This document shows positions 39,986 through 56,930 of a stretch of DNA of 64,000 nucleotides, piece by piece (positions within the stretch are counted from its first letter, which is position 1; every line of letters begins with the position of its first letter). Made by a program: the position numbers and the translations under genes. The stretch spans positions 17,879 through 81,878 of the forward strand of contig CAWDSQ010000001.1 in the NCBI GenBank assembly GCA_963804955.1. The letters run 5' to 3'. The notes under the pieces were generated by a model. The model had not been told where the DNA came from. It was given only the letters and a program-made list of their open reading frames with translations, and searched no databases. Source of the stretch: an uncultured delta proteobacterium (lineage in GTDB: Bacteria; Desulfobacterota; WTBG01; CAIYCZ01; CAIRTM01).

Positions 39986-40211
39986 TATCGGCTTCCCAGT
40001 TTTCACCAATCGGGGAGACAACATCCCCAACCGTGCAGCAGGCGCGAAGCTCGGCCAAGCGCTTGCGCGCGGCCTCACGCTCGTCGCGCACCGGCACGAG
40101 GCTTGCCACCACTTTGCCGCGTGATGTCACCAAAAGCTGTTCTCCTTTTTTTACCTTGCCGATATAGGCGGGCAGATGGCTTCGCAATTCGGTAATATTT
40201 ATCTGACGCAT
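39972..40211 (-). CDS. Phd/YefM-type antitoxin partner of VapC
   Basis: MRQINITELRSHLPAYIGKVKKGEQLLVTSRGKVVASLVPV is the typical Phd/YefM N-terminus. GGAGAGG lies 4 nt upstream of the ATG. Confidence 0.8.
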   Translation of the reverse strand: MRQINITELRSHLPAYIGKVKKGEQLLVTSRGKVVASLVPVRDEREAARKRLAELRACCTVGDVVSPIGENWEADNAGS

Positions 40212-40220
40212 AAGACCTCT

Positions 40221-40268
40221 CCTTTAACCGTACACTTACAATGTACAGTTAAAGGTTCAATAAGTCAA
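40221..40268 (-). promoter_or_regulatory. Putative vapBC promoter with overlapping operator palindrome
   Basis: On the minus strand: TTGACT (40268-40263), a 17-nt spacer, then TACATT (40245-40240). An inverted repeat CTTTAACCGTACA / TGTACAGTTAAAG (40222-40254, 13-nt arms with 1 mismatch, 7-nt spacer) overlaps the -10 box. Confidence 0.45.
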
Positions 40269-41724
40269 TTCTTTTGCCGCTGGGAATCCGGGGTTTTATC
40301 CGGCTCAAAATGCTGTTTGGCCGCAAGAAAAGACGGCAGATGCCGCAGGAGATGGAACATGCTCCACCGGTGCTGCCAGATGCGCCGGGCGAATGTGCGG
40401 CGCCAGGTGGGGTCGGTAGTAGAAGCGCTTGACATGGCTGTTGTACAGGTAAGTCGAGCTTTTCTTTTGATTCAATGGCCTTCGGGACGAACACGAAATT
40501 CAGGCAGTTCATCAGCTTCCAGTTTTCCTCAAAGGTCCCTTCATCGCGCAGCTCCTGCCAGACAGGCGCGCCCGGGAAGGGCGTAAATTTCGACATGTTC
40601 ATGTCATCCAGCCCCAGGGACATCACAAAGTCGCTCGTTGCCTGAATCGATGCTTCCGTCTCGCCCGGCAGGCCCATCATGAAAAGCCCCTTTGCCCTGA
40701 GGCCGCAGGCTTTGATCCGGGCAACGGTGTCGCGGACCTCATCAAGCGTTACCCCTGCCTTATGGCGCTCAAGCATCGCCGGATCTGCCGATTCGATACC
40801 AACCGATACCATGAGGCAGCCTGCTGCTTTGAGCGTTTTCAGAAGATCATTGTCTGCATGCCCGACCCGCACAGCGCAGTTGAACTGTATGCCCGAGAGG
40901 CTTTGCGGTCAAAAGGCGGCACAGCTCGAAAATGCGGGGCCTGTTCAGGGTAAATAAATCATCATAAATATTTATATGCCGCACGCCGAAGCGCTGGCGC
41001 AGGTGCTTCATATGCTCATAGATGTATTCAGGCGAGTTGTACCGGTACGAGCGCTTAAAGACAGAGCGGTCGCAGTATGAGCACTCATAGGGGCAGCCGC
41101 GGCTGGTTGACATGGTTGCGCCGGGAATTTCGATGAAGCTGAACAGGGGCAGGTTGTATGAACGGGGAAAACCTTTCAGGCCTTCATAGTCAGGAAAAGG
41201 CAGCTGGTCCAGATCCGGCAGGGGCGCGCGGGGAGCATTGGTAACAATCTTTTCACCATCGCGCCAGATGAGGCCGTTGATATGCTGCGGGGTTTGACCT
41301 GATGCAAGCTCTGAAAGGGTTGCCTCTCCTTCTCCGGGAGATCAGATAATCAATGCCGGGAAAGTCCTGCAGCAGAGTCGCACCAAGGGCTGACACATGC
41401 ACGCCGCCAAAGACGGTTTTGACCTGCGGGCGGGCTTGTTTGATCATGTCTGCCATATCATTGCCGTCGAGAAAACTTGACGTGGTCGTTGAAAAGCCGA
41501 CCAGATCGGGAGTCTGCGGCAAGCACGGCCTGTACATTTTCTGCAATGCTCTGAGGCGCTTCCGGGCCGAGGCAGTCATGAATGAAAACCTGATGACCGT
41601 TGCGCTTCAGATAGGCGGATATTGACAGCAGTCCCAGAGGCGCCATCCTGTTTGCCGTGGCGGTAATATCCTTTTTACCGGGGACCCAGTTTGATCCGGC
41701 CGGATGGACAAGCATGATGCGCAT
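40265..41724 (-). pseudogene. Cobalamin-binding-domain radical SAM enzyme (class B rSAM) no. 1; heavily frameshifted (at least 6 indels)
   Basis: MRIMLVHPAGSNW...APLGLLSISAYLKRNGHQVFIHDC; DLVGFSTTTSSF...VFGGVHVSAL; MSTSRGCPYECSYCD (CxxxCxxC); GHADNDLLKTLKAAGCLMVSVGIESADPAMLERHKAG...GLFMMGLPGET. The tail ...YLYNSHVKRFYY / DPTWRRTFARRIWQHRWSMFHLLRHLPSFLAAKQHFEPDKTPDSQRQKN* is spread over three frames, with the stop at 40265-40267. Confidence 0.75.
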
Positions 41725-41751
41725 GGCAATTTAAAGATGAAGGATTTAAAA

Positions 41752-41892
41752 AGAAGTCAGAATTCAGTAGCCGGAATTCAGAATAGAAGATTCACAGCAA
41801 ACCTAAGCATCGGGAACCGTGCACCTGCATGAATTTTTCGAATCTTGAATTGTTTTCCTTCTGACTTCTGGATTCTGAATTCTGGCTACTTC
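41752..41892. repeat. GAATTC-centred palindromic (MITE-like) intergenic element, copy 1
   Basis: AGTAGCCGGAATTCAGAAT (41766-41784) and ATTCTGAATTCTGGCTACT (41872-41890) form a 19-nt inverted repeat with 1 mismatch. The right-end motif recurs at 43961 and 51205. Confidence 0.7.
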
Positions 41893-43238
41893 CCGCTGCC
41901 TATCGAAAAACTTTTCAATCCTTTCCCGGTCATGTTTCCCTGTTGGAAGCACGGGAATGGAATCAACGATTTTGATATGGCGGGGGATGGCATAGGGTTC
42001 GCATAGTTTTTGACAAGCCCGGCCCTTATTGCTGGTGCATCGCATGCTGCCTACAACAAGGGCAGCAATATCGCTGCCCCTGCCGGTGCGGGCTGCATTG
42101 CAAAGACCGACGGCATCACAAACGCCCGAGAGCGTTTTTAATTTATCGCACACTTCAGCAAGATCTACCCGCCTGCCGCCGACTTTTACAATATTGTCGG
42201 CCCGGCCATGAAGGGTAAAGCTGTCGGCCCCGCATGGGTTCTGCGCGGTCGGCAGTGGTAAAAAAGCCATCCTGATCGCGGGGCAGCTCGGGCGAGAGAA
42301 AATCCGAGCGCACCAGCAGCTGCCCATTGAGTATCTTCCAGTCAATGCCTTGAAACGCGCGGCATACATGCCTGTCGGCCGGGGAAGCTGTCCATGCAAT
42401 GCCTCCTGTTTCCGTGGAGCCGTAAATTTCGGTGACGGCAATACCGGTTTTTTCATAAAAATACTCGGCATCAGGCCGTGGAGCATGCCGGCAGATGAAA
42501 AAGCCAGCCTGAGGGTATAGCGCTGCAGGTTTTCGGTTTTCAGCACATGATACTGCGACGGGAACGCTTACTAAAATTGTAGCCTCCGAATCTCTGGCTG
42601 CGGCAAGAATTTCTTGCGGAAATGAATACACGGGCTCAAGCACGGTGCAGCCCGACATGAGCGGCACCAGAACGGAAAAAAGCAGCCCGTAAATGTGCTG
42701 TGGCGGCACGGTTGAAAGAATACAATCATCGGGGGCCTATGCCAAATGTTTCTGCAAGAAGCTGCGCTTCGCCAAAAAGGTTCCGTGCGGTTTTAGACCA
42801 CAGCTTTGGTTTGCCGGTTGAGCCGCCGGTAAAGAGCATGACTCGCGGCGCATCGGCATCACCTGCAGTATACACAAGAGGCGCAGGCAGAATGCCACGC
42901 TCTCTGGCGTGATAACCGTGTAGCCTGTGGGCGGGCATCTTTGCTGCTGGAGAGGATTTTTGAAAAAGGGATGCTTGACTCGCGCATCGTCGAGAGCCTG
43001 CTGGAAAAGGCATAGGGAATAATGATGCGCGGCCCGCCGCACGCAGCGGCAAGCAGGGCAGCGGCCATACGGGTTTTGTCCTGCGTCCAGAGGCAGAGGG
43101 GCTCATCCGGTGAACTAAGGCTGCACAGGCCTGCAGCTAAAGGCCACATCAGCCCGGTTTGGCCACCGGCAATGAACGGGCTTGAAGGCGGCTGCCGGTA
43201 CTACGATTAAGGCAATCAGTCAGTTTGTCTTTCATGGT
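41803..43238 (-). pseudogene. AMP-dependent synthetase/ligase (adenylate-forming, aryl/acyl-activating); at least 5 frameshifts
   Basis: Fragments in different frames: MKDKLTDCLN (ATG at 43238); MLFTGGSTGKPKLWSKT (AMP motif); PPQHIYGLLFSVLVPLMSGCTVL; TEIYGSTETGGIA; HGRADNIVKVGGRRVDLAEV; PVLPTGKHDR. The 3' end is approximate because the ORF runs into the repeat element. Confidence 0.75.
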
Positions 43239-43386
43239 TTTAAAAAAGCAATTTCTGGATAGGCCCGTAGAGCAGGGGGTATTTCTTGACTTTTCGGGCT
43301 GTTTATATTCTATTCACATAATCCTGCTGCTATCAGCACATGCTTTAAGTAGCATGATTTTGTCCAATTGCCAATTACAGTGTTCT

Positions 43387-43808
43387 ATGCCCGACAGAGC
43401 TATTGATGATTTGATACCGCATCGCGGCCGAATGAAGCTGATCGGGTCGATTGTGCAGGTCAGCAATGATATCGCCGTTACCTCGGCAGTTGTGGCCGAT
43501 ACCTGGCCCCTGTGTGCACGGGGCTTCAGTGAACCCGATCGTGCTCATAGAGGTAGCTGCGCAGACGGCGGGCGTGCTCTCCTGCTGGAAAAAGGGCGAG
43601 AGCAGATCGGCCTTCACAGCCGGAATGCTTACGGGCATCAAAAGCGCTGAATTTTTTGTCGACCAGGTGCCTCTGCACGCAGAGCTGATCACCACGGCCA
43701 CGATCATGTACAGCCTTGATGATTATGAGGCAATTGAGGCAACGGTCATGCTGGGACGAGCAGTGCCTCTGCAAAGTGCAGCTGCAGATATTCGGGGTGC
43801 GGGGATAA
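43387..43808 (+). pseudogene. Hot-dog fold beta-hydroxyacyl-ACP dehydratase (ApeI/ApeP-like); two frameshifts (~43515 in a G4 run, ~43755)
   Basis: MPDRAIDDLIPHRGRMKLIGSIV...TWPLCARG, then VNPIVLIEVAAQTAGVLSCW...FTAGMLTGIKSAEF, then DEQCLCKVQLQIFGVRG* (stop at 43806-43808). Confidence 0.7.
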
Positions 43809-43811
43809 AAA

Positions 43812-43997
43812 CAGGATTCAGAAGCCAGAATCCAGAGTCCAGGAATTCAGAAGAAAAAAATTCAAACTGCAGGGCAGGATCCTGGCCTGCATGGGTTCGG
43901 AGTTCGTAGTATGGGCATCCGCCGTGGCGAATCCTTGCCCAAGTGTGCTTTGTATCTTCTATTCTGAATTCTGACTACTGGATTCTGGATTCTAAAG
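43812..43997. repeat. GAATTC-centred palindromic (MITE-like) intergenic element, copy 2
   Basis: The left end reads caggattcagaagccagaatccagagtccaggaattcagaag. The right end carries ATTCTGAATTCTGACTACT (43961-43979) followed by ggattctggattct. Confidence 0.65.
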
Positions 43998-44029
43998 ATT
44001 ATTGCTAAACTTTACAGACCGGGAGCTGT

Positions 44030-44758
44030 ATGGACAATCAGAAGATCGCCATCGTCACCGGCGGCAGCCGCGGCATAGGCCGTGCTATTGCCTGTGAGCT
44101 TGCCGCTGCGGGCTATTATGTCATCATAACCTACAAGACAAATGACGCGCAGGCGCAGGAGACGGTTGCAGGCATTCAGGCACAGGGCGGCGCAGCAGAG
44201 GCTGTGAAGTTTGACGTGGCTGATGCTGCAGAGGCCGCCCTGCAGATGAATGCCATCTGCAGCCGGTTTCAAAACATACAGGTGCTGGTCAATAATGCCG
44301 GCATTACCGCAGACGGCTTGTTCATGCTCATGACCGAGACAGAGTGGAACTCGGTGATCGATACATCGCTCAAAGGCTTTTACAATGTCACGCAGCCGGT
44401 GCTGAAAAAAATGGCCGTGAATCACAGCGGGTCGATTGTGGCTATTTCCTCTGTGTCGGCGCTTATGGGCAATCGCGGCCAGTCAAATTATGCAGCTGCC
44501 AAGGCGGGCATAATTGCCGCATCCAAAGCCCTTGCCTGCGAAGTGGCGCGCACGGGCATCAGGGTCAATGTCGTGGCGCCGGGGCTCATCGATACGGAAA
44601 TGATCAAGGATGTTCCCGTGCTGAAAATCAAAGAGATAATACCCATGGCGCGCATTGGCAAACCGGAGGAGGTGGCAAAGGTTGTGCGCTTTCTCTGCTC
44701 CGATGATGCCTCCTATGTTACCGGCCAGGTCATCTCGGTCAATGGGGGCATGTTTTAG
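44030..44758 (+). CDS. fabG: 3-oxoacyl-ACP reductase
   Basis: IAIVTGGSRGIGRAIA...NNAGIT...SSVSALMGNRGQSNYAAAKAG (S...YxxxK)...VNVVAPGLIDTEM...VNGGMF. Intact 242-aa ORF. Confidence 0.9.
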   Translation: MDNQKIAIVTGGSRGIGRAIACELAAAGYYVIITYKTNDAQAQETVAGIQAQGGAAEAVKFDVADAAEAALQMNAICSRFQNIQVLVNNAGITADGLFMLMTETEWNSVIDTSLKGFYNVTQPVLKKMAVNHSGSIVAISSVSALMGNRGQSNYAAAKAGIIAASKALACEVARTGIRVNVVAPGLIDTEMIKDVPVLKIKEIIPMARIGKPEEVAKVVRFLCSDDASYVTGQVISVNGGMF

Positions 44759-44759
44759 G

Positions 44760-45383
44760 ATGAAAAGGGCAAAGCCGATGCGCCGGCTGCTTTCTCTTGG
44801 CTGTATGCGCGACTGCTGCTGTCCGGCTGGTCAGGCTCATGGGAAACCCTACAGAAGGAGTCTGAAAAGATTACCTCCGTGAGCGCCCGTTTCACGCAGT
44901 CAAAAAATATGCGCATACTTTCTAAACCCCTCGTTTCGACCGGCAGCTTTTATTTTAAAGCGCCGGACTCCGTGCGCTGGGAATATGAAGCGCCGGTGAA
45001 GAGCATTCTGCTGATGCATGAGGGTTCAGTCAAGCGGTATACGCAGGGAGCCAGGGGACTTACCGAGGATGCAGGGGCGGCTCTGCAGTCGATGAATGTG
45101 ATGCTGCAGGAAATAGCCCTGTGGAGCAAGGGGCGGTTTACTGAAAGCCCGGGCTTTGCAGCCGTGCTGAAAGCGGGCGACGGGCCGGCAATTCTGCTGA
45201 CGCCCCGGGACGAAGGGCTTGGCAAAAATTATAACCGGTATCGAAATTGCGCTTGCACCGGACAGGCCCGGCGTGATTTCAACTATCACCATTCGCGAGG
45301 GCGAAGGGGGCACAACGGTCTTGCAGTTCAGCGATGTGCAGATCAATGCAGCGCTGAGCGACAGCGTGTTTCGGAGCCCGTGA
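44760..45383 (+). pseudogene. LolA-like outer-membrane lipoprotein-carrier family protein; about 3 frameshifts (two within 44790-44850, one near 45230)
   Basis: MKRAKPMRR... (ATG at 44760, 1 nt after the fabG stop); WETLQKESEKITSVSARFTQSKNMRILSKPLVSTGSFYFKAPDSVRWEYEAPV...; then IITGIEIALAPDRPGVISTITIREGEGGTTVLQFSDVQINAALSDSVFRSP* (stop at 45381-45383). Confidence 0.65.
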
Positions 45384-46070
45384 TGAAAAAATGCAGGTCC
45401 ATTATTCTTTTGTGCGCGCTGGCTGCGGCGCTGCTGCCGGCATGCGCAGGCCCCCGGCATATACGGCCCGAGCCGGTAAATCCTGCGCTGTGCAGGCTGC
45501 CTTTCACCAGCACGAGCTGCCGCTATATTCACGCTCTTGATGCCGAACTGCCCGGCGGCACGCGCATGACGGTTATGGGCATTTCGGTTATTGATCCTGG
45601 GGCTGATACGATACAGGCCGCCATTATGACGCTGGAAGGGCTGCTGCTTTTTGATGCCACGGCATCGGCCGGCAGCATGCAGGTGCATCGCGCTTTGCCG
45701 CCTTTTGACGGGCCGCAGTTTGCCGAAGGGCTTATGCGGGATGTGCGGTTTATTTTTATGTTTCCTGCCGGTGCGCCTGCAATGACCGGCAGGCTTGATG
45801 ACGGTTCATCCGTCTGCCGGTATCAGGACACATTCGGTATGACGGTTGATGTGATCGTTCATCCTGGCCGGGGCTGGGAGGTTGAGCAGTATTCAACCTT
45901 CGGTAAAAAGCTGCGCAGCTTAAAAATTGATGCACTGCAGAACGGCATTCCCGGCATGCTGGAGTTTGAGGCCTTCAGCCCGAAGCCCTATGCCCTGCAC
46001 CTGAAGCTGATCAGCGCCGAGCCGGTCACGCCGGATGACAAAAGTAAAATTGCTGGCGTGCACTGTATGA
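45383..46070 (+). pseudogene. Putative lipoprotein (position and size match the DUF3261-type lipoprotein of aryl-polyene loci); probable frameshift near its 3' end
   Basis: MKKCRSIILLCALAAALLPACAG has a signal peptide and a Cys lipobox-like site. There is no stop in its frame before the rSAM gene. In the neighbouring frame a TGA at 46068-46070 forms an ATGA overlap with the rSAM start. Family assignment is by context only. Confidence 0.5.
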
Positions 46071-47412
46071 AATTCAAACTCATCTACCCGCAATGGAAAA
46101 AGCTTGAACGGCAGACCGAATTTCATCTGCCGCCGCATGGCCCGGTTGTGTTTGCCGCAACGCTGCCGCCGCATGTGGAGGTGGAGTTTGTGGATGAAAA
46201 CGTGCAGGCCCTTGAGCTTGACGATGCCCCCGATTTTGTCGGCATTTCCATGATGCTCACCGCGCAGGTCAGGCGCGGCTGGCAGATTGCCGATCACTAT
46301 CGCAGCCGGGGCATCAAGGTCATCTGCGGCGGCATTGCCACCATGCTGCATGCGCAGGAAACGATGGAGCATGCCGATTCGGTATTTCTCGGAGAGGCCG
46401 AAGGCAGGATGGCCGGTGTCTGGATGATTTTAAAAACAACAGGCTCAAGCCCTGCTATGACTATATGACCGACTATCCTGCCGTGGAGCTCATCGGCCCG
46501 GCCCGCAGAAGCATTCTGCAGCGCGATCTCTACAATTACCGGGGCGTGCAGATGGTTGATCTCGTGCATGCCTCGCGCGGGTGCCGGTTCAACTGCTATC
46601 CCTGCTGCGTTAATTTTCTGGGCGGCCGGCAGTTCAGGCCCCGGCCCTATGATAAGGTTATAGAGGAGATGGCAGGCATCGACAATAACCGGCTTTTCAT
46701 CGTGGACAATTCTCTTGCGCAGAACAAGCAGTGGGAGCTGGGCCTGTTCCGGGAAATGGAGGGGCTGAAAAAAAAGTGGTGCTGCCATCCCATCGAAGAA
46801 GATGATGAGGTTCTGGAAGCCGCGGCCCGGGCAGGGGCCTGGTATGTGTATCAGGCCGTCTTTGACACTTCAGACCATATCAGCAACAGGATAAAGCGTT
46901 ATCACGACTATGGCATAGCCGTTGAGGGCACCATACTGCTTGGCCTTGACAATCACACCGAGGACTATATCAAGCGGCTCATCGATTTTTTGCTTGAGGT
47001 AGAGCTTGATATGGCGGAGTTTACCGTGCTGACACCGTTTCCGCACACGCAGGCATTTGATGATATGCACGGGCAGGGCCGCATCACGAGCTATGACTGG
47101 AATGATTACACCTGCGACAGGGTTGTGTTTCAGCCCCGGCACATACAAGCCGAGCGCCTGCAGGAGCTGTACTATTATGCCTGGGACATGTTCTACCGCG
47201 ACGAGCCGCAGAACTATAAGATGTTCAGCCTTTTCAAGAAAGTTGTAGAAAAGGAAAAGGCTGATGAGACTTTTATTCCCCGGCGGCGCGACCTTGCCGG
47301 CAGAGTGTTCGGCAGGAAGAATAGCAGGAGCAGACCGTGTGTCTGCCGTAGGGGCGCAGTGCCTGCGCCCAAAATAACGATACCGCAGGGGCAGACCAGC
47401 GTGTCTGCCTGA
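46067..47412 (+). pseudogene. Cobalamin-binding-domain radical SAM enzyme no. 2; one frameshift near 46425
   Basis: MKFKLIYPQWKKLE...DFVGISMMLTAQVRRGWQIADHYRSRGIKVICGGI...FLGEAEGRMAGVW, then DDFKNNRLKPCYDY...LVHASRGCRFNCYPC (Cys triad)...AEFTVLTPFPHTQ. Confidence 0.75.
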
Positions 47413-47423
47413 AGAGGCAATAC

Positions 47424-48980
47424 ATGACAAAAAAAAATAGTGTTATAGTCGGGCAGGGGCCGGTGTCCTGCGAGCAGATCGTGGCGGTTGCCCGCGGTCA
47501 GGCCCGGGTAAAGCTCAGCGCTCAAAAGACTTTCCTTGCACGCATGAACCGTTCGCAGGTCCATGCTGCAAAAAGCACTGAGAGAAGGCGTCGCGGTGTA
47601 TGGCGTCAACACAGGTTTCGGCAAAGCCTGCGGCAAGCGCATGCAGGCTGATGCAGCGCTGCAAAAAATCGCCAATCCCCTGCCGTTTCACGGCTGCGGC
47701 ACGGGCGAGCCCATCGGCATTGAAGAGACGCGGGCTGCCATGCTCTGCCGCATGCTCTGCCTTGCAACCGGCTACTCGGGCGTGTCCATCGGCCTGCTGC
47801 GGCAGCTTGAAGCATTTTTGAATCTTGGCATTACGCCTGTTGTGCCCTGCCAGGGATCGGTGGGCGCATCGGGCGATCTGACGCCCATGTCCTATATCGC
47901 TGCCTGCCTTGCCGGCGAGCGGGATGTTTTTTATACAGGCAGGCGCATGAGCGCACGGCAGGCCCTGAAAAAAACCGGCCTGACAACCCTATGTCTTTGA
48001 GCCGAAAGAGCCCCTTGCCATGGTCAACGGCACATCGACCATGACCGGCATTGCCGTCATGGCTGTGGAGCGCAGCCGCAGCTATTCTTCATGCCGCCGT
48101 GTGCGCCGCAGCCCTGACCGTGCATGCTTTCAGGGGCAAGTCGCATCACTTCCATCCTGTCATCAGCAAGGCAAAGCCTTTTGCCGGGCAGGACGCTGTG
48201 GCCCGAAGCCTGACCCTGCTTCTGCAGGCAAAGGGCTCTACGGCGCATCTCGAGGAAGACGGGCCCGAAGCGCTGCAGGATCCCTATTCCGTGCGCTGCA
48301 CGCCGCAGATCGCAGGCGTGCTGTCGGACGCGCTCGCCTGGATATCCCAATGGGTCGAGACCGAGGCCAACAGCTCAAACGACAATCCGATTTTTGATCC
48401 GGCCACAGGCGAGCCGCTTATGAGCGGCAATTTCTATGGCGGCCATATCGCTTTTGCCATGGACAGTCTGAAGGCTGCCCTGGCATCGGTTGCCGATATG
48501 GCTGACCGCCAGATCATGCTGCTGGTGAACCCGCAGCTCAGCCGGGGGCTGCCTGAAGATCTTGTGGGTGTAGCAGGACGCGAGCACTTTTTTCATCACG
48601 GGTTCAAGGCAATGTCGATAACAGCCTCTGCCCTTGCCGCCGAAGCGCTTAAATTGACCATGCCTGCGGCATCGTTTTCACGGTCCAGCGAATCGCATAA
48701 TCAGGACAAGGTGAGCATGGGCACCATCGCGGCCCGCGATGCCGAGCAGGTATGCACCATTGTTGAGCGCACAGTGGCCATCCACCTGCTTGCGGCAGCG
48801 CAGGCCTGTGATCTTCGGGGCCGGGTTGAGGCGCGGCCGCGGCTTGCAGCGCTTGTCAGAAGCATCAGGAAGCTTTCACCGCGCCTGGTGGCGGACCGGC
48901 CCCTTGACCGCGACATTGAGGCTGTTGCGCAGGCAATTGCCGACGGCAGCCTGTTTCTCAACCCTTACGAGGATACATGA
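47424..48980 (+). pseudogene. MIO-dependent aromatic/histidine ammonia-lyase (HAL/PAL/TAL family); three frameshifts (~47558, ~47985, ~48075)
   Basis: VYGVNTGFG...; GSVGASGDLTPMSY (the Ala-Ser-Gly MIO triad); MVNGTSTMTG; DPYSVRCTPQIAGV...NDNPIF...GNFYGGHIAFAMD...SESHNQDKVSMG. Confidence 0.8.
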
Positions 48981-48984
48981 CGCC

Positions 48985-49407
48985 ATGACCCGCGAGCATC
49001 ATGCAAGCTTTGAAATTGAGCGCAAGGTCGCCTTCTATGAGCTTGACCCCATGCAGATCGTGTGGCACGGCAACTACTATAAGTATTTTGAAGACGCCCG
49101 TTCGGGCCTGCTGCGCCAGGCGGGCATAGACCTGCACGACTTTTATGTAAAAAGCAATTGCGTTTTTCCCATCATCAAAACCGCCACCAAGCATATCTAT
49201 CCCCTGCGCTACGGCGATGAATTCATCTGCAGGGCCACTGTTGCCGAATGCAAAGAAAAGCTCGTTGTTGATTTCGAGATACGGCTCAAGGAGGGCGGCA
49301 GGGTCTGCGTTAAAGGCCGGACCGAGCAGGTGGCTGTGCAGATGCCCGAAGGCGAGATGCAGTTTGAGCTGCCTGCTGCAATCCGCTCTGCCCTGGGGAT
49401 GCTGTGA
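48985..49407 (+). CDS. 4-hydroxybenzoyl-CoA thioesterase (4HBT/YbgC) family acyl thioesterase
   Basis: FEIERKVAFYELDPMQIVWHGNYYKYFEDARSGLL..., a hot-dog thioesterase N-terminal motif. 140 aa from the ATG at 48985. Confidence 0.8.
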   Translation: MTREHHASFEIERKVAFYELDPMQIVWHGNYYKYFEDARSGLLRQAGIDLHDFYVKSNCVFPIIKTATKHIYPLRYGDEFICRATVAECKEKLVVDFEIRLKEGGRVCVKGRTEQVAVQMPEGEMQFELPAAIRSALGML

Positions 49408-51111
49408 CGGGGCCGCTTTTTCACGAAGCCCTTGCCTCGGGCGCTGAGCAGGTAGCGGTCTGGTCGCAGCTTCTGGACCGGATCAATGTCTTTCCCGTTG
49501 CCGATGGCGACACGGGCCGCAATCTTGTCATAAGCCTTGCCCCGCTGCGGCAGCAGGTGAGCAGCCCGGAAAAACTCTGCCGGAGCCTGCTGCTTGCCGC
49601 CCGCGGCAATTCCGGCAATATTGCAGCCCGTTTCCTGCAGGAGTTCGCGCTCTTGCCCTCGCTTAAGGATCTGGCGGCCACGGTGCAGCGAGGCCGTGAT
49701 ATGGCATACGGGGCTGTGAGCGAGCCCAAGCCCGGCACCATGCTCAGCCTTTTCGACAGGCTTGCCGATCTTTGCAGTGAAATCCCGGCAGACATGAATG
49801 CCGCGTGGACGGCCTGGCTTCTCTCCTCGCTTGAACATGCCGTTGCCGATACCGTGCACGGGCAGCAGGTTTTGCAGCAGGCCGGGGTGGTTGATGCCGG
49901 GGCCCTGGGCATGTATCTTTTTTTTGACGGTTTTTTCAGCCGGCTTGCCGGCACTGAGTATTTCTTCTCACCGGCCCGTGCCTGCTTTAAAGATAATCTT
50001 CGCATTGCCGACTCGTTCAGCCGGGAGACAACAGCCGGTTTCTGCATCGATGCCGTGGTGGAATCGGCAGGCAGCCTGCAATCAGCCCTGGGGAGCGATC
50101 CTGACAGCGCTCGTTGTCATGCGCAGCGGGGAGTATGTCAAGGTGCATCTCCATGCCCCTGATAGGGAAAAGGCAAAGTCGGATCTGGCAGCGCTGGGTA
50201 AAATTATTTCGTGGGCAGACGATGATCTGGCTAGCCAGACCGCGGTTTTTTCACGGCCCGCTGCAGCCTCAGCGGTCCATATCATGACCGATGCCGCAGG
50301 CTCCATTACCCGCGAAGATGCCGCAGCGCTCGGGCTTACCCTGCTTGACAGCTATATAAACATGGGCGATACAAGCCTGCCGGAGACCTGCTGTTCGCCT
50401 GCTGATATATATAAAGCCATGCGCGAAGGCTGCCGCTGCTCAACTGCGCAGGCTTCAATGGATGAGCGCTGCCAGCACTACCTGAGCGTGCTTGGACTCA
50501 ATAAAAACGTGCTCTATCTGTGCGTGGGCTCGGTATATACGGGCAATTATCAGGCCGCCTCCGGCTGGAAACAGAAGCATGATCACGATAGCCGTTTCAG
50601 CATTATAGATACGGGCACAGCTTCGGGCAGGCTTGCCGTGGCCGTGCATCTCACGGCGCGTTTCGCCCGGCAGGCGGCAGGGGCGGCCGAGGTTGAAGCT
50701 TTTGCGCGCAAGGCGCTTTCAAACTGTCATGAATATATATTTGTCGACACTTTGGGCTATCTTGCCGCCGGCGGCAGGCTTTCTAAAACCGGTGCCTTTT
50801 TCGGGGATATGCTAAAGTTTAAACCCGTCATCAGCCCGCAGCCTGACGGCGCGCAAAAGGTCGGCATGGTCAGAAACCGCGATGAGCAGGTGCGGTTTGC
50901 CCTTGAAAAGCTCTCAGAGGTTTTCACGCCTGAGGCAAAGGGCCTGATACTTCTTGAGTATACCGACAACCGCAGCTTTGTTGAGGAAACAGCCGCAACC
51001 GTGCAGCGCCGTTTCCCGAAGACAGAACTGCTTGTGCGGCCTTTGTCGCTCACAACAGGCGTGCATACGGGGCCGGGCACCTGGGCCGTGGCGTTTGCAG
51101 CGGAGGAATAA
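49404..51111 (+). pseudogene. Fusion of a Dak2/DhaL (FakA-like kinase) domain with a DegV (FakB-like fatty-acid-binding) domain; one frameshift near 50090
   Basis: N-terminal part: RINVFPVADGDTGRNLVISL...AARGNSGNIAARF (Dak2 motifs). C-terminal part: VHIMTDAAGSITREDAAALGLTLLDSYINMGDTS...YLCVGSVYTGNY...IIDTGTASG...LSLTTGVHTGPGTW (DegV). The GTG start overlaps the thioesterase stop. Confidence 0.75.
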
Positions 51112-51237
51112 AGAAGGAATTCAGTATCCAGTAGTCAGTAGCCAGAAGAAAAAATTTAAATCATTTCGGAGGCCAGATACATTTTTGGAATCTCAGTATC
51201 TTTTATTCTGAATTCTGGCTGCTGAATTCTGGCTTCC
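51112..51237. repeat. GAATTC-centred palindromic (MITE-like) intergenic element, copy 3
   Basis: The left end reads agaaggaattcagtatccagtagtcagtagccagaag. The right end carries ATTCTGAATTCTGGCTGCT (51205-51223) followed by gaattctggcttcc. Confidence 0.65.
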
Positions 51238-51277
51238 TTTTGAAGGACAAAATTGTTTACTGCCTGATTGTTAAAAT

Positions 51278-52002
51278 ATGCGCTGTGCCATTGTCATTCC
51301 CGTCTATAATCATGAAGCCACGGTCGCCGAAGTGGTGCGGCAAAGCCTCGCACTGGGCTATCCCGTAATTGTCGTTGATGACGGTTCAACAGACAGCACC
51401 TATGAACGGATCAGGGATATTCCGTGCCGTCACCATTCTGCGGCATGCGCAGAACCGGGGCAAGGGAGCAGCGCTGCTTACGGGGTTTGCTCGAAGCAGC
51501 AAAAAACGCCGACTGGGCTGCAACCCTGGATGCCGATGGCCAGCACCGGCCCGAAGACCTGCCGCTACTGCTTGCCGCGGTGCCTGAAGGCAAGCGGCCC
51601 ATCGTGGTGGGCCGGCGCGAGGGCATGCAGGCTGAGCATGTGCCCTGGGCAAGCAGGTTCGGCAGAAAATTTTCAAATTTCTGGGTGCAGGCATCGGGCG
51701 GCCCTGCCATTTCCGATACGCAGAGCGGCATGCGCCTCTACCCGCTGCCGGAAACGATTAACCTGCCGGTGCGGGCGCGCCGGTTTCAGTTCGAGGTTGA
51801 GGTCCTGGTAAAGGCGCGCTGGTACGGCGTGCCTGTGGTGGAAGCGCCTATTCATGTCTCCTATGCCCCGAAAGGCGAGCGCATTTCCCATTACCGTGGC
51901 TTTGTCGATTCCATGAGAAACTCGGCAGCATTTACGCGTCTTATTTTCGGGCGGTTTTTCTTTCTGCCTTTTATCCGCTTCAGGCGGAAGGCTTCATGGT
52001 GA
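51278..52002 (+). pseudogene. GT2 glycosyltransferase; two frameshifts (~51420, ~51485)
   Basis: MRCAIVIPVYNHEATVAEVV...VIVVDDGSTDST, then VTILRHAQNRGKGAALLTGF, then ADWAATLDADGQHRPEDL...SDTQSGMRLYP...FEVEVLV. Confidence 0.8.
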
Positions 52003-52006
52003 GGGT

Positions 52007-55000
52007 ATGAAGAAACGCTATGCTCTGCGCTGGTCACTGGCCGGGCTGATACTGCTTTCAGTCACAGGGTTTTTTATTGCAGGTATCTATCGCCTTCAGT
52101 TTTCAACCGATATGCTTGCAGCGCTGCCGCAGGATGATCCCGTGCTGGCAGATGCCCGCTATGTGCTCATGCACAATCCGGCACTGGAAAAAATTGTCAT
52201 CGACATAAGCCTTGCCCGTGAGGATATGGCGCTGCTGACCGAATGCGCTGCTTTTGTTGAAGCGCGGCTGCGGAAAAGCGGCCTTTTCAAACAGGTAGGC
52301 TTAGAGCATATGACCAAGCTCATGCCCGGTTTTTTGCAGTATGCCGCGGAGGGTCTGCCGGTGCTGTTCAGCGAGCGCGAGCTGACAGAAGAAGTGGCGC
52401 CCCTGCTGTCACCCGACAAGGTGCGCGCGGCGCTGGCTGCCCATCTTGCCGGTTTAAGCGGCCTTGAGGGTATCGGTCAGGCAGAGCTTATGGCGGGCGA
52501 CCCTTTGAACCTGCGAAATCTTGTGCTGAGCCGCATGGCCGGTTTAATTCCTGTCAAGAATGCCCGGTTCGTGAAGGGGCAGCTCATGTCAGGCGACGGC
52601 AGGCACCTGCTTATCATTGCCGAGCCCGCAGGCCCGGGCACTGATACGGCCTTTGCCCGCAGGCTTGATGCTTTGATGCAGCAGACCGCCGGTGAGGTTG
52701 AGGCCCGCTATGGCGCTGAAAATGCCGTGACGCTGACCCCGGTCGGCTCCTACCGAACGTCCCTTGACAATGAGGAGAATGCAAAGCGCACTGTGCAGCG
52801 GGCCACGCTCTTTTCAACCGTGGCCGTTGCACTGTTGCTGCTGTGCGCATTTCCCCGGCCTTTGATCGGGCTTCTGGCGCTGCTGCCCGCTTTTGCCGGA
52901 ACCATGTTTGCGGTTTTTGTCTATTCTCTTTTCAATACTTCCATCTCTCTTCTGGCTGTGGGTTTCGGCGGCGCCATCGTTTCATTTACCGTTGATTACG
53001 GCATTGCCTATCTGCTTTTTCTCGACCGTTGTCACGAGACCAAGGGCTTCGAAGCATCCCGCGAGGTCTGGTCCCTCGGTCTTATCGCCATGCTCACCAC
53101 TGCCGTCAGCTTTGCGGCTCTCAGTCTGAGCGGTTTCCCGGCCCTTGCCGAGATAGGGCTGTTCAGCGCCCTGGGCGTAGTTTTTACCTATATTTTCGTC
53201 CACGCCATATTCCCCCTCGTATTTGCCCGCATGCCTGCCGCAGGCCATGAGCCTTTCGTGCCTCTGCAGGCTTTTGTGAACATACTCGCTTCATCCCGCA
53301 CCAGCTGGAAAGCACCTGCAGCAATCGCCTTCGGCATCGCTATGCTTTTTTTTGCCCGGCCTGATTTTCATATTGATCTCACCGCGCTCAATGCAGCGAC
53401 CCCGCAAACACGTGCAGCGGAAAAGCTTGTGCAGCAGGTCTGGGGCGATGTTACCGGCAGCATGCAGCTCATGCTGGAGGCAGGCTCCAGGGATGAGCTT
53501 GCCCGCCGCGGCGACCGGGTATCTCGCATGCTGCAGGCCGAGATAGCCGGCGGCGCGGTGCAGCCCTGCTTCCTTCCTTCGTCGCTGCTTCCCGGGGCGG
53601 AGGTTCGCCGGGAAAATTTTGCCGCCTGGCAGCGCTTCTGGAGCACAGAGCGCATTGCCGGCCTTGAAGCAGCCGTCGGTGCGGCATCGCGCGATCTCGG
53701 GTTTGCTCCCGATGCTTTTGCGCCTTTTTTTGCCATGCTTGCCAGCCCCGCCATGCCGCAGGCTTCAATGCCCGATGAGCTTTGCGCTTTGCTTGGCATA
53801 GCACAGGATGCAGAGGCCGGCATCTGGCGGCAGGTGCTCACGCTTGCGCCCGGTTCATCATATGCCGCAGATGATTTCTACAGCCGCATTTCCGCTGACG
53901 CTGCAGCGCGGCTGTTTGACCCTGCTCTTTTCAGCCAGAGACTGGGGACGGTGCTCCTGTCGGGGTTTCTAAAAATGGCGCTCATTGTCGGCCTGGTAAC
54001 GGTACTGGTCGCGCTTTTATTTTTTATGGACTGGCAGCTTACCCTGCTTGGTATTGCGCCGACGGTGTTTGCCCTCATCTGCACACTGGGCACTCTTGAA
54101 ACTTATGGGCCAGCCTCTGGGCATCCCCACGCTCATGGTGGCTGTCGTGGTTATCGGCATGGGCACGGACTATGCGCTGTATTTAATCCGCGCCTATCAG
54201 CGCTATTGTGATGAAGCCAATGCCTCCCTCGGTCTTATCCGCCTGTCGGTTTTTCTCTCGTTTGCCACCACGCTGCTTGGCTTTGGCGTGCTTGCCGTGT
54301 GCGATAATCCCATGCTCAAAAGCGCCGGCCTCGGGCTTGCCCTTGGCATCGGCTATTCATTCATCGGCGCTGTCACCATTGTGCCGCCGGTATTAAAGCG
54401 GCTGTTTGCGCCTGCGCGTTTTCCTGACGAAACGGTTCAGGCCGGCTCGCGGCGGCACTTTCAGAGGTTTATCAGCCATTACCGGCATATGGAGTCATAC
54501 CCTCGGTTCTTTGCCCGCTTCAAGGTCCTGTGTGATCCCATGTTCCCCCGGCTTGCGGATTTTTTGCATGCACCGCGCACAGTCATTGATATCGGCACCG
54601 GCTATGGCGTGCCTGCGGTCTGGCTGCTTGAGCTGTTTCCGGATTTAAAAGTATATGGCATCGAGCCGGATGCACGAAGGGTGCGCTTTGCCAGCCGCGC
54701 CATTGGCGGGCGCGGGCTCGGTACAGGTGGGCCGGGCGCCTGATGTCCCCGATGCGCCAGGGCCTGCCGATGCAGCGCTGCTGCTTGATATGCTCCACTA
54801 TATAACCGATGATGAAGTGCGGCTCACGCTTTCGCGCCTGCGTGAAAAGCTGCGCCCCGGCGCACAGCTCATTGTGCGGGTAACCATTCCCCTGCATGAG
54901 CGCGCATCAGTGCTGCGCTTTGTTGAAACAACACGCCTGAAGATACTGGGCATTGCGTCGTATTTGCGCACGGCGCAGCAGGTGCGCGCACTTATTACGG

Positions 55001-55077
55001 ATGCGGGCTTTACCATCACCTGTGAAGAGCCAACTGCCCAGGGTAGTGAAATTATCTGGTTTATTGCTGAAAAATAA
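52007..55077 (+). pseudogene. MMPL/RND-superfamily lipid exporter fused in frame to a C-terminal class I SAM methyltransferase domain; two frameshifts (~54098, ~54710)
   Basis: There are about 12 TM spans with two large loops (52007-54400). Across the first frameshift the text reads ...ICTLGTL, then KLMGQPLGIPTLMVAVVVIGMGTDYALY. There is no stop before ...HYRHMESYPRFFARFKVLCDPMFPRL...VIDIGTGYGVPAVWLLELFPDLKVYGIEPD (SAM motif I) ...LLDMLHYITDDE...LRPGAQLIVRV. Confidence 0.7.
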
Positions 55078-55080
55078 AAG

Positions 55081-55260
55081 ATTCACCGCAGAGACGCAAA
55101 GAGCGCAAAGGGTTAATGCTTTTTGTTTTTCGCTGAGAGAGCAAAAAACAAAAAAAGTGCACTTTTCGGCAAATGAGGCGATGTCTTTCCCTTTGTGCCT
55201 TCTCAGCAAAAAAGGAAAGACATATCTTCACTCTGCGGCCTCCGCGCCTCTGCGGTGAAT
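55081..55260. repeat. MITE-like element with terminal inverted repeats
   Basis: ATTCACCGCAGAG (55081-55093) and CTCTGCGGTGAAT (55248-55260) form a perfect 13-nt TIR. Similarity extends to about 24 of 31 nt. An internal 10-bp hairpin ATGTCTTTCC/GGAAAGACAT is also present. Confidence 0.7.
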
Positions 55261-55283
55261 TTATGCGTAAGAAAATTTTTTGA

Positions 55284-55379
55284 GGTTGGGTTAAGCCCGG
55301 GAAATCCGTTGGGTTTCGTACCTCAATCCATACAGATAACGGTCTTATTAAAACCCATATTCTTAAGGGCGAACCCAAC
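55284..55379. repeat. Second palindromic intergenic element (GGTTGGGTTAAGCCC ... GGGCGAACCCAAC)
   Basis: Its ends are inverted repeats. The left-end 17-mer GGTTGGGTTAAGCCCGG is identical to 36813-36829. Confidence 0.6.
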
Positions 55380-55396
55380 AAATCAACGTATGAGAT

Positions 55397-56296
55397 TATG
55401 ACAGACCTTTTCTACCGCTGCCTGATGTTTGTCTCCGGCTTCACCGGCGCCTGGCTGTTTAAAGCCGGGGCCTGGTGGGTTGCAACGGGCTATTTCTTTC
55501 TGTTTCCGCAGCGGGTTCGGCACGAGCATCAATTTCTATAAAGCGCTTTTCCCTGTGCGCGGATTTTTCTATCATCTCTTCTGCGCCTGGCGTCAGTTTC
55601 ACAATTTCACCACGATCTTTCTCGACCGCTGGCTTGCCCGCAACCCGGGCAGCATCACCTTTTCGCAGGAGGGCCGGGAGCATATTGAAAAGATCGCATG
55701 TGACGGAACCGGCGGCATTATGCTCATGTCGCATCTTGGCAACTGGGAGCTTGGGGCGAGCTATCTTGGGAGCCGCACTGACGGGCCTGCCATAAAACTT
55801 CTTCTGTATCTGGGGGAAAAGCAGGGCGAGCAGATCGAGGGGCTGCAGAAAAAGGACCTTGCCCTGCAGGGCGTGAAGATCATCGCCACAAAGCAGGGCG
55901 AAGCCTCACCCTTTGACCTTGTGGAGGGAGTGCGCTTTATAAAAGAAGGCGGCTTTGTCTCCATGACCGGCGACCGCCTGTGGAGCGCTGCCCAGCGCTC
56001 GGTTGCAGTGAAGTTTTTAGGCCGCGAGGCCCGCATACCCGAGGCACCGTTTCAGTTTGCCCTGCTCTCAGGCGCACCGCTCATTATCTTTTTTGTGAAC
56101 CGCCTGGGCAACGGCAGATACCATTCCACGCTCTTCCCGCCGTATTGCGGTTGCGGCAGCATCCCGCAGCGAGCGCGCGGAAGCCATTCGCAAGGCTGCG
56201 CAGCAGTATGCCGATATCCTGGAGACCATGGTGCGGCGGTATCCCTTTGAGTGGTATCACTTCGAGCGGTTTATTGAGCCGGGGGGTAGTGAATAA
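55397..56296 (+). pseudogene. Lysophospholipid/lipid A-type acyltransferase (LpxL/HtrB family); frameshifts near 55518 and at 56147
   Basis: MTDLFYRCLMFVSGFTGAWLF...FLFPQRVR, then TSINFYKALFP...GGIMLMSHLGNWELG (H-x4-E/D acyltransferase motif)...FVSMTGDR...IPEAPFQFALLSGAPLIIFF. After an extra G at 56147 the correct frame reads VAAASRSERAEAIRKAAQQYADILETMVRRYPFEWYHFERFIEPGGSE*. Confidence 0.75.
56020..56278 (+). repeat. Direct repeat copy 1 (3' end of the acyltransferase gene)
   Basis: 56034-56278 aligns with 57857-58100. By hand alignment there are 9 substitutions and one 1-nt indel. Weaker similarity extends ~15 nt further upstream. Confidence 0.85.
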
Positions 56297-56329
56297 CGGC
56301 GCCCTTGAGTTTTTCCGTTTTTTGGGTTA

Positions 56330-56895: not shown

Positions 56896-56930
56896 TTGAC
56901 AAAAATAGTGTAACCATATATAGTTACACT
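56896..56930 (+). promoter_or_regulatory. hicAB promoter with operator palindrome; predicts a leaderless or near-leaderless hicA mRNA
   Basis: TTGACA (56896-56901), a 17-nt spacer, then TATAGT (56919-56924). The ATG is at 56931, only 6 nt after the -10 box. A perfect inverted repeat AGTGTAAC (56907-56914) / GTTACACT (56923-56930) spans the -10 box. Confidence 0.55.

Follow-up and report, generated by a model that had tools for sequence, protein, structure and literature searches.

Gene content of the locus

The window analysed here is a 64,000-nt stretch of contig CAWDSQ010000001.1 from an uncultured delta proteobacterium. It contains 13 biosynthetic genes at positions 40,271–56,296, together with the gene of a flavin adenine dinucleotide (FAD)-dependent oxidoreductase at 38,057–39,535. 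These genes resemble parts of aryl-polyene (APE) clusters. In the nearest relatives, they adjoin a chain-building arm with ketosynthase (KS) and acyl carrier protein (ACP) genes, which the window does not have. Judging from gene content and gene order, the locus is probably a split or recently arm-losing copy of an APE-related, KS/ACP-dependent type II cluster.

The open reading frames (ORFs) at 37–58 kb were split into two to five overlapping frames. Pfam domains were called on stop-to-stop segments as well as on frameshift-corrected proteins, and both sets agreed. The FAD-dependent oxidoreductase (plus strand; NAD_binding_8 and Amino_oxidase) was of the CrtD/phytoene-desaturase (amine-oxidase) type; in this genome, the conserved cluster begins on the left with its gene. 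Two biosynthetic genes were located on the minus strand. One encodes a class-B-type radical S-adenosylmethionine (SAM) enzyme, designated rSAM1 (40,271–41,724), which has a B12-binding domain and a radical SAM core with the motif CPYECSYC and is 482 amino acids (aa) long after removal of five extra bases. The other encodes an adenylate-forming ligase of the ANL superfamily (41,884–43,260; ~445–455 aa; AMP-binding, 87 bits for the corrected protein), with several frame shifts and approximate ends. Between the convergent FAD and rSAM1 genes a PIN toxin/Phd-YefM antitoxin pair was inserted (39,593–40,223, minus strand; PIN and PhdYeFM_antitox), which is outside the pathway.

The other genes were found on the plus strand. 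They start with a hot-dog fold, ApeP-like dehydratase (43,387–43,800), whose PF22817 score of 23.9 bits after correction was under the gathering score of 27, and with an intact gene for a 3-oxoacyl-ACP reductase of the FabG type (44,030–44,758; adh_short_C2, 203 bits). These are followed by a LolA-like periplasmic carrier protein (44,760–45,383; LolA, 49 bits) and by a lipoprotein of 221 aa (45,383–46,048), an intact ORF with a signal peptide, an LPAC lipobox and weak similarity to DUF3261. The second radical SAM protein, rSAM2 (46,067–47,328), is a divergent one of 420 aa with a weak, B12-binding-like domain at the N-terminus and the motif CRFNCYPC, for which the B12-binding (29.6 bits) and Radical_SAM (20.7 bits) matches were both sub-gathering. 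Next to it lie a member of the 4-methylideneimidazole-5-one (MIO)-dependent aromatic amino-acid ammonia-lyase/aminomutase family (47,424–48,965; 512 aa after removal of three extra bases; Lyase_aromatic fragments of 171, 26 and 258 bits) and a YbgC/FadM-like 4HBT thioesterase (48,985–49,407; 4HBT and 4HBT_2). The 3' end of the thioesterase gene overlaps the start of the gene for a single-chain, fatty-acid-kinase-like protein of ~568 aa (49,404–51,111; Dak2, FakA-like_M and DegV). The last three genes encode a polyprenyl-phosphate sugar synthase-like family 2 glycosyltransferase (GT2; 51,278–52,002; Glycos_transf_2, 92.6 bits after correction), an MMPL/RND-type exporter fused to a C-terminal SAM-dependent methyltransferase domain (52,007–55,077; ~1021 aa; Pfam matches in three frames), and an acyltransferase of the LpxL/HtrB family (55,398–56,296; 298 aa; Lip_A_acyltrans, 58 bits after correction), of the lysophospholipid/phosphatidylinositol mannoside (PIM) type.

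The original prediction had listed this gene content from the letters of the sequence, and every domain that it named was recovered by Pfam. This included the phytoene-desaturase-family FAD enzyme upstream, as well as the two class-B-like radical SAM proteins, the MIO lyase and the FakA/FakB-type fusion embedded in the locus. The proposal that the locus is the accessory and export part of an APE/flexirubin-like system also held, with all of the export and anchoring set being present.

Frame shifts in the assembled sequence

About 22 frame shifts were located in 16 kb. They were nearly all single extra bases, and no nonsense mutations or deletions were found. The shifts were corrected by three-frame dynamic-programming alignment of the DNA to intact orthologues from related loci, which were compared with the window and are given L-numbers (L001, L085, L089, L090, L092, L169, L170 and others). 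After removal of the shifts, all 13 biosynthetic genes and the FAD gene were full length and stop-free, and the corrected proteins shared 70–87% identity with the intact orthologues of L085 and 73–97% with those of L092. The extra bases were placed at 41,514, 41,342, 40,894, 40,452 and 40,418 in the rSAM1 gene, at about 43,519 in the dehydratase gene, at positions including 47,556 in the lyase gene and 50,109 in the kinase gene, at 51,419 and 51,492 in the GT2 gene, at 54,095 and 54,714 in the MMPL::methyltransferase gene, and at 55,521 and 56,146 in the LpxL-type acyltransferase gene.

Every shift within 48.5–56.3 kb was a 1-bp insertion relative to the 96%-identical L001 (ERZ25039513 contig_53257, 30.7 kb), and the indel density against L001 was similar inside and outside the cluster. 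Single-base insertions occurred across the whole window at about one per 0.7–0.8 kb and were not cluster-specific. It was observed that a NuoF-like gene at 35,370–36,729 was split over two frames, and a NuoG-N-terminal-like Fe-S gene at ~36,930–37,760 over three. Because the shifts are 1-bp insertions relative to L001, the corrected proteins are full length and housekeeping genes are split alike, the frame shifts are most likely sequence errors and not signs of pseudogenisation.

Searches for KS and ACP genes in the window

The original prediction had reported no KS or ACP anywhere in the 64 kb, which was confirmed by tblastn, by profile hidden Markov models (HMMs) and by a search with the arm proteins of L092. 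When the window was searched by tblastn with three family KSs, a family ACP and E. coli AcpP, nothing was found up to E = 20, and E. coli FabH likewise found nothing in the window. HMMs built from 70 family KSs and from family ACPs gave a best E value of 0.48 against all six-frame segments of at least 30 aa, and no PP-binding ORF indicative of an ACP was present in the window. The proteins of the L092 KS arm had no match in the window except for a weak match of the arm thioesterase to the 4HBT gene of the cluster itself. The largest unassigned gaps within the cluster were 170–320 bp. One ACP-like tblastn match at 43,342–43,446 (E = 0.44) was rejected as spurious, because it falls in the N-terminus of the dehydratase gene.

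The chain-building arm in the closest relatives

The missing genes were found in the relatives of the locus. L092, L090 and L169 are 80–90% identical to the window at the nucleotide level, and L170, on a 152.7-kb NCBI contig, is a fourth related locus. All four have a contiguous arm that encodes three KSs, between one and three ACPs, a PlsC-type acyltransferase, a thioesterase and a dehydratase of the polyketide synthase (PKS) type; some relatives also have an ApeI-like dehydratase and a KS that is joined to an ApeC-type chain-length factor. The arm immediately precedes the FAD gene in L092, L090 and L169. This gene was syntenic in L089, L090 and L092 at 82–88% aa identity (L092, 88%), and in L169 at 90% nt identity.

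L092 showed the architecture of the window at 84–87% nt identity. Its aa identity to the window was 97% for the reductase, 92.5% for the lyase, 92% for rSAM2, 90% for rSAM1, 88% for the FAD enzyme and 73% for the ligase. Beyond its FAD gene, L092 encodes a PS-DH dehydratase (292 aa), a PlsC-type acyltransferase (256 aa), a KS (440 aa), an ACP (84 aa, with a DSI motif), a 4HBT thioesterase (201 aa), a second KS (420 aa), a PIN_3/Phd pair and a third KS. The arm of L090 was the same as that of L092, and the arm of L169 adds an ApeI-like dehydratase and a second ACP. In L170 the arm has three ACPs, a KS::Ketoacyl-synt_2 fusion, an ApeI-like dehydratase and two further radical SAM genes, and it runs directly into the genes for rSAM1, the ligase, the ApeP-like dehydratase, the reductase, LolA, the lipoprotein, rSAM2 and the lyase. 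The ApeI-like dehydratase was present only in the arm that is missing from the window (L169 and L170).

Since the same cluster has a contiguous KS/ACP arm in its relatives, the window would show the detached or lost arm of a KS/ACP-dependent pathway. The segment at 38,057–56,296 appears to be the part of a ~30–35-kb cluster of the type II PKS/fatty-acid synthase kind that serves starter supply, tailoring, release, lipid anchoring and export. This cluster type, as its gene content and order indicate, is conserved in Syntrophales- and Desulfobacterales-type bacteria. The locus is unlikely to be self-sufficient, and most members of its very large family, known from metagenome genomes of the Syntrophales, Smithellaceae and Desulfobacterales type, have KS and ACP genes of their own.

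The junction upstream of the FAD gene

The homology of the window stops at 38,033 with L092 and at 38,030 with L169, which is 25–30 bp before the start codon of the FAD gene and intergenic. It could be argued from this abrupt break that a chimeric join lies directly ahead of the FAD gene and that the real genome has its KS arm there. The assembly is error-prone, and L001, apparently from the same metagenome-assembled genome project, is an inverted duplication and probably an artefact. Nevertheless, such an assembly artefact is considered very unlikely. L089, a separate Joint Genome Institute (JGI) metagenome assembly from another project and another assembler, shares with the window the toxin-antitoxin insertion, ~95 bp upstream of the FAD gene, and the armless state. 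Its PIN/Phd module was at the same site and 90% aa identical to that of the window, its genes were intact, and UvrC, a hypothetical protein and a tetratricopeptide repeat (TPR) protein follow in place of the arm. L169 does not have the ~95 bp, and the module was not at this position in L092, L090 or the P0007 contig. The Fe-S gene upstream of the junction was complete, with no gene cut or truncated there. The features shared with L089 and the complete Fe-S gene make a chimeric join unlikely.

The PIN_3/Phd pair of L092 sits inside its KS arm, unlike the pair of the window, which is beside the FAD gene.

Selection on the retained genes

The ratio of non-synonymous to synonymous substitution rates (dN/dS) across the cluster was 0.17 for the window against L092, 0.22 against L089, and 0.19 for L089 against L092. 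Per-gene values for the window against L092 were as low as 0.03 for the FabG-type reductase and 0.09 for rSAM2. These values of 0.17–0.22 for the window, with no relaxation, argue that the retained genes are still in use. The synonymous distance (dS) was 0.50 between the window and L092 and 0.68 between the window and L089, and the toxin gene was less diverged (dS 0.30, window against L089) than its neighbours. Because the dS of the toxin gene is below that of the flanking genes and the window is nearer to L092 than to L089, the region seems to be mosaic.

These data also bear on the possibility that the locus is a decaying remnant, in which the arm was recently deleted, no product is made, and some or all of the frame shifts are real. 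The arm is gone while relatives with 80–90% identity keep it, the number of frame shifts in the 16 kb is high, and the toxin-antitoxin insertion, together with a 1.6-kb insertion with a 245-bp duplication, suggests a plastic region at the edges of the cluster. The remnant is nonetheless judged improbable. The shifts are single-base additions with hardly an exception and come with neither nonsense mutations nor deletions, the housekeeping genes outside the cluster are equally split, and the indel density against L001 does not differ across the cluster boundary. In addition, the dN/dS values show no relaxation, and L089 is armless with intact genes.

The wider gene-cluster family

The Dak2-DegV protein had more than 2,600 homologues, with named sources in Syntrophales, Syntrophaceae, Smithellaceae, Desulfobacterales and Deltaproteobacteria. 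A contig with 81% identity carried exactly the 14 genes of the window, intact and in unchanged order. A scan of species-representative genomes yielded 80 family loci, in which two blocks were conserved, one with rSAM2, lyase, thioesterase, kinase, GT2, MMPL::methyltransferase and LpxL, and another with dehydratase, reductase, LolA and lipoprotein. Of 69 family loci, 59 had the thioesterase gene immediately before the kinase gene and 53 had the GT2 gene immediately after it; the lyase was present in 50 and rSAM2 in 57.

Where the full ±10 kb around the locus could be seen, KS/ACP genes were present within 10 kb in 27 of 39 loci. In a metagenome scan with rSAM1, its orthologues were beside KS/ACP genes in 20 of 25 loci, the typical order of the arm being KS-KS-thioesterase-dehydratase-rSAM1-ACP-KS-acyltransferase. 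Since the kinase, the radical SAM enzymes and the lyase co-occur with KS/ACP genes in most loci, they are not substitutes for them. Two candidate rules were tried and rejected. That lyase-bearing loci lack KS/ACP, and vice versa, was ruled out by 29 loci in which the lyase and a KS were found together. That rSAM1 stands in for KS/ACP was suggested by seven of seven true-orthologue genome loci that were KS-less in view, but it did not agree with the metagenome count above.

Several points weigh against the reading given above for the window. The displaced arm itself was not seen, as the view ends at the edges of the window. A database search with the L092 KS found no KS orthologue on the 178,904-bp contig of the window among the five best clusters, which is a weak test because frame-shifted fragments would rank below the listed matches and one cluster was seen only in part. 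KS/ACP genes were not within 10 kb in 12 of the 39 family loci, although a view of ±10 kb is too short to call such loci KS-free. Finally, the window is nearer to the arm-bearing L092 than to the armless L089, which suggests that the armless state may be recent or spread by recombination; purifying selection on the retained genes would be compatible with a recent loss.

The original prediction had proposed that the product is built on housekeeping fatty-acid synthase (FAS) rather than on a dedicated type II system. Such a lineage would truly be without dedicated KS/ACP genes, and its retained enzymes would work with housekeeping FAS. For example, the ligase could activate the lyase product or a fatty acid, or the FakA-FakB fusion could phosphorylate it, after which PlsX would hand it to AcpP and FabF would elongate it; tailoring, glycosylation or acylation, and export would follow. 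A Fak-type kinase is known in Firmicutes as the step by which free acids reach PlsX/AcpP-dependent metabolism. The 64 kb free of KS/ACP genes, the database check of the 179-kb contig, the armless L089, the 12 loci without KS/ACP in view and the purifying selection on the retained genes would all speak for this route. However, the proposal was not upheld, and a route of this kind is regarded as unlikely. Three relatives at 80–90% nt identity and L170 have the dedicated arm contiguous with the same genes, with three KSs and ACPs next to the FAD gene in the closest ones. The counts of 27 of 39 and 20 of 25 point the same way, the kinase, radical SAM enzymes and lyase accompany KS/ACP genes in most loci, and the ApeP-like dehydratase and FabG-type reductase imply ACP-bound intermediates of a dedicated type.

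A more specific variant, which we hold to be rather unlikely, is a sub-lineage whose APE-related lipid pathway has been uncoupled from the dedicated KS/ACP genes and still works. The product of the MIO lyase, or some other free acid, would be phosphorylated by the single-chain FakA-FakB kinase and fed into the housekeeping ACP/FAS. Remodelling by both radical SAM enzymes and the CrtD-like desaturase, glycosylation or acylation, and export would be the later steps. If this were true, it would be a Fak-gated, radical-SAM-tailored route to an omega-aryl lipid without a described counterpart.

With an arm that is contiguous in the nearest relatives and displaced or lost here, an APE-type locus without KS/ACP is largely explained. 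The remaining interest is at the level of the family, and concerns the thioesterase with the single-chain FakA-FakB kinase, the constrained 420-aa radical SAM enzyme and the others, the MIO lyase with its Phe-His pair, and the MMPL pump fused to a methyltransferase. Thousands of loci in Syntrophales, Smithellaceae, Desulfobacterales and allied metagenome genomes contain this conserved set, and no published description of it was found in a literature search. The family would offer a possible acyl-phosphate route from a type II PKS to membrane lipids. Cluster-detection rules anchored on KS genes will miss split copies like that of the window.

A recurrent module was observed in L002, L021, L052, L140, L146, L149, L151 and L160. 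It combines genes for the ATPase and the permease of an ABC transporter with those for an ACP, a KS and a protein of ~291 aa. The ABC-ACP-KS module moves as a unit relative to the core. The ~291-aa protein matched no NCBIfam family and may be a chain-length-factor-like partner.

The single-chain kinase

The kinase reached the cut-off of the NCBIfam DegV model TIGR00762 (149 bits, cut-off 99.7) and matched Pfam DegV with E = 2e-42. The equivalog models were not reached, with 55 bits against 975 for FakA_VfrB and 41 against 350 for FakB1. Against FakA-N structures in the PDB, E values of 3e-15 to 6e-18 were obtained, and the motifs ADGDTGRN, RGNSGN and GVVDAGALG were invariant in the family. The AlphaFold model of the 96%-identical P0001 kinase had a predicted local distance difference test score (pLDDT) of 85 and a predicted template-modelling score (pTM) of 0.87. 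In this model, the N-terminal 200 aa superposed on FakA-N with template-modelling (TM) scores of 0.77–0.79, and the C-terminal half superposed on fatty-acid-loaded DegV/FakB structures with TM scores of 0.80–0.88. By its profile matches and the predicted fold, the protein is a FakA N-terminal domain, a FakA middle domain and a DegV/FakB lipid-binding domain in one chain.

The FakB-like domain takes the place of the C-terminal domain of FakA itself, and in the modelled arrangement tethering could replace subunit docking. With the thioesterase immediately upstream and overlapping the kinase, the simplest reading would be that a free acid is released and then re-activated as an acyl-phosphate. 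A literature search on Dak2-DegV fusions in Deltaproteobacteria found nothing relevant, nor was any literature found combining DegV with aryl polyenes. Papers naming arylpolyene together with Desulfobacterota proved to be generic genome-mining surveys, and a Pelobacter genome paper did not bear on the question.

The kinase shares with the Firmicutes FakA/FakB system (S. aureus and S. suis; PDB 7w7h, 8vip and 6alw) the Dak2/FakA-N fold with its nucleotide/Mg motifs kept, the FakA middle domain and the C-terminal DegV/FakB fatty-acid-binding fold. In contrast to that system, it is a single polypeptide and not two subunits, and it is encoded inside a biosynthetic cluster after a thioesterase, in Gram-negative-type anaerobes.

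The ammonia-lyase

The ASG triad that forms MIO, within GASGDL, was invariant in 55 of 55 family members of the lyase. The motif FHGCGTG was equally invariant, with the selectivity pair Phe-His in all 55. This pair is Ser-His in histidine ammonia-lyase (HAL), His-Leu in tyrosine ammonia-lyase (TAL) and Phe-Leu in phenylalanine ammonia-lyase (PAL). The family lyase matches none of the three. The reference residues for the selectivity pairs reportedly come from the 2006 work of Louie and of Watts. Among the NCBIfam models, HutH scored 415–420 bits, BagA TAL 401 and FlxA 288; PAL and aminomutase models matched too, and all were under their cut-offs.

The radical SAM enzymes

The corrected rSAM1 protein matched Radical_SAM with 93.5 bits and B12-binding with 73.2 bits, both above the gathering scores. 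Its best NCBIfam matches were HpnJ (162 bits) and BchE (148 bits), both under cut-off, and its nearest solved structures were AprD4 and TokK. For rSAM2, the domains were sub-threshold and the CxxxCxxC motif was present. It was 72–77% aa identical to the proteins of Syntrophales-type loci and was the best conserved of the family-specific enzymes; the only solved relative found by sequence was AprD4 (E = 1e-5). No NCBIfam family reached its cut-off for either protein. AprD4, which we take to be a cobalamin-independent dehydratase, is the nearest solved structure for both enzymes, so that methylation would be only one of the possible reactions.

Extra radical SAM genes ('rSAM3' matches), with 22–25% identity to rSAM1, were observed in L052, L055, L058, L078, L120, L142 and L166. 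At 4150–6367 in L170, two radical SAM genes without a B12 domain lie between an ACP and a KS pair. From these extra genes, it follows that the family can hold up to four radical SAM enzymes.

The other enzymes and the export set

The best NCBIfam match of the FAD enzyme was CrtD with 71 bits, far under cut-off. The ligase was 73% aa identical to orthologues of 447–452 aa in L092 and L170. Its PDB matches were generic ANL enzymes, and the assignment stops at the ANL superfamily; a 484-aa homologue in L066 matched the bacterial 4-coumarate-CoA (coenzyme A) ligase model TIGR02372 with 84 bits, under cut-off and amid generic acyl-CoA ligases. ApeP-like matches were carried by orthologues of the dehydratase in the P0007 contig, L002, L085, L088 and L170. 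The L085 orthologue of the reductase exceeded the cut-off of the NCBIfam FabG model NF004200 (310 bits, cut-off 273), and the L085 orthologue of the LolA-like protein had flexirubin LolA2 as its best NCBIfam match, under cut-off.

For the lipoprotein, the original prediction had given a DUF3261-type assignment. The lipoprotein part stood with its lipobox, and the DUF3261 label was weakly backed by the window protein (E = 0.057); 6 of 16 family members matched, the best with E = 4.6e-5. By these matches the protein is at best a distant DUF3261 relative. Its interpretation as a LolA/LolB-like paralogue was rejected, as profile-profile comparison did not link it to the LolA family and the PDB held no relative.

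GT2 had PpgS, AglJ and ArnC as best NCBIfam matches, all under cut-off. The MMPL::methyltransferase was a single protein of 1021–1030 aa in L001, L004, L085 and the P0007 contig, with HAE3 and HpnN as best NCBIfam matches. The best match of the LpxL-type acyltransferase was a PIM acyltransferase with 65 bits, under cut-off.

Proposed pathway

The steps of the pathway were all inferred from family membership and gene order. An aromatic amino acid would be converted by the MIO lyase to an aryl- or heteroaryl-acrylic acid, which the ligase would activate. The chain would then be extended by KS and ACP proteins acting in trans, most likely those of a displaced arm elsewhere in the genome, with each round processed by the FabG-type reductase and the ApeP-like dehydratase. 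The chain could be modified by both radical SAM enzymes, by the CrtD-like flavoenzyme and by the methyltransferase domain. Next, the 4HBT thioesterase would free the acid and the translationally coupled FakA-FakB kinase would make an acyl-phosphate, which may enter glycerolipid or glycolipid assembly through GT2 and the LpxL-type acyltransferase. Finally, transport to the outer membrane would fall to the LolA-like protein, the lipoprotein and the MMPL pump.

Resemblance to described gene clusters

The component names of APE clusters used here, those of the ape genes of E. coli CFT073 and Vibrio fischeri, reportedly go back to Cimermancic in 2014 and Johnston in 2021. The Pfam families ApeP-like, ApeI-like and Ketoacyl-synt_2 were checked directly in this analysis. 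The window resembles APE clusters in its adenylating ligase, ApeP-like dehydratase (sub-gathering match), FabG-type reductase, 4HBT thioesterase, LolA-like protein, DUF3261-like lipoprotein (weak), MMPL exporter, GT2, LpxL/LPLAT acyltransferase and methyltransferase. In the relatives only, this likeness extends to an ApeI-like dehydratase, to two or three ACPs and to a fusion of a KS with an ApeC-type chain-length factor. As far as domain matches tell, the family belongs with the aryl-polyene clusters on account of its export and anchoring set, its dehydratases of the ApeP-like and ApeI-like kinds and its Ketoacyl-synt_2 fusion. Unlike APE clusters, the window has no dedicated KS, no KS/chain-length-factor pair of the ApeO/ApeC type and no ACP. 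Beyond the APE set, the family has between two and four radical SAM enzymes, a CrtD-like flavoenzyme, an MIO lyase, the FakA-FakB fusion, a PlsC-type acyltransferase and a PS-DH dehydratase; its methyltransferase is fused to the MMPL pump, and its hosts are strict anaerobes.

The flexirubin clusters of Bacteroidota are similar in supplying the aryl starter by a TAL-type MIO enzyme and a ligase, in the LolA-like protein, whose best named match is flexirubin LolA2, and in the reductase, which is close to FlxB. However, the flexirubin equivalogs all remained under cut-off (FlxA 288 against 700 bits, FlxB 295 against 340, LolA2_flexi 89.5 against 125). The family lyase has Phe-His whereas TALs have His-Leu, and no DarA/DarB-type genes were seen; flexirubin clusters, for their part, have neither the kinase fusion nor the radical SAM enzymes.

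FASII-like clusters of anaerobes with radical SAM and phytoene-dehydrogenase-like genes have been described as 'Cluster I' of Kuenenia and in Desulfotalea, Geobacter and Pelobacter (Rattray 2009, PMC2649909), and the function of such anammox-type clusters is still unexplained (10.64898/2026.05.19.726425; PMC13459092). The family shares with them a dedicated ACP, paired FabF-like KSs, a dehydratase, a phytoene-dehydrogenase-like flavoenzyme, one or more cobalamin-type radical SAM enzymes, a CoA-ligase-like gene and a glycosyltransferase, all in an anaerobe. It differs in also having the APE-type export set, the MIO lyase and the kinase fusion. Against TIGR04072 (rSAM_ladder_B12, cut-off 360), rSAM1 scored 90.9 bits and rSAM2 40.6 bits. 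These scores are far under cut-off, indicating that neither is an orthologue of the ladderane-cluster enzyme. The CrtD-like FAD enzyme, a candidate counterpart of the anammox flavoenzyme, is encoded next to rSAM1 in the window and next to KS/ACP genes in L092, L090 and L169.

Repeats, insertions and flanking regions

The 3' end of the LpxL-like gene was found twice as a 245-bp direct duplication of 95–98% identity, at 56,034–56,278 and 57,857–58,100. The two copies flank a 1.58-kb insert at 56,279–57,856, which is not in the 96%-identical L001. This insert contains a HicB-like antitoxin ORF (57,169–57,516) and hairpin repeats (56,370–56,527 and 56,700–56,785), and it looks like a mobile or recombination-mediated insertion. 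L001 itself is an inverted duplication, with the lyase-to-LpxL genes mirrored around ~9.1 kb, which is probably a long-read assembly artefact.

GC-rich hairpins resembling repetitive extragenic palindromic (REP) elements were observed in the window at 36,855–36,895 and 56,793–56,861. They recur in intergenic sites of related clusters, including L092 (9930–9998, 13,078–13,143 and 14,151–14,191), L090 and L085–L087, and are possible recombination hot spots near the variable boundaries of the cluster.

The upstream flank of the window carries a 2-oxoacid:ferredoxin oxidoreductase, NuoE/F-like genes, and sugar-nucleotide and polysaccharide genes, and the downstream flank carries a DUF2142 membrane protein, a pyrroloquinoline quinone (PQQ)/BamB-like protein and a TPR protein. 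The region at 4001–8000 had a G+C content of 0.33–0.40, compared with 0.45–0.59 elsewhere. It contains ABC-transporter, methyltransferase and glycosyltransferase-like ORFs, and may be a horizontally acquired polysaccharide gene block.

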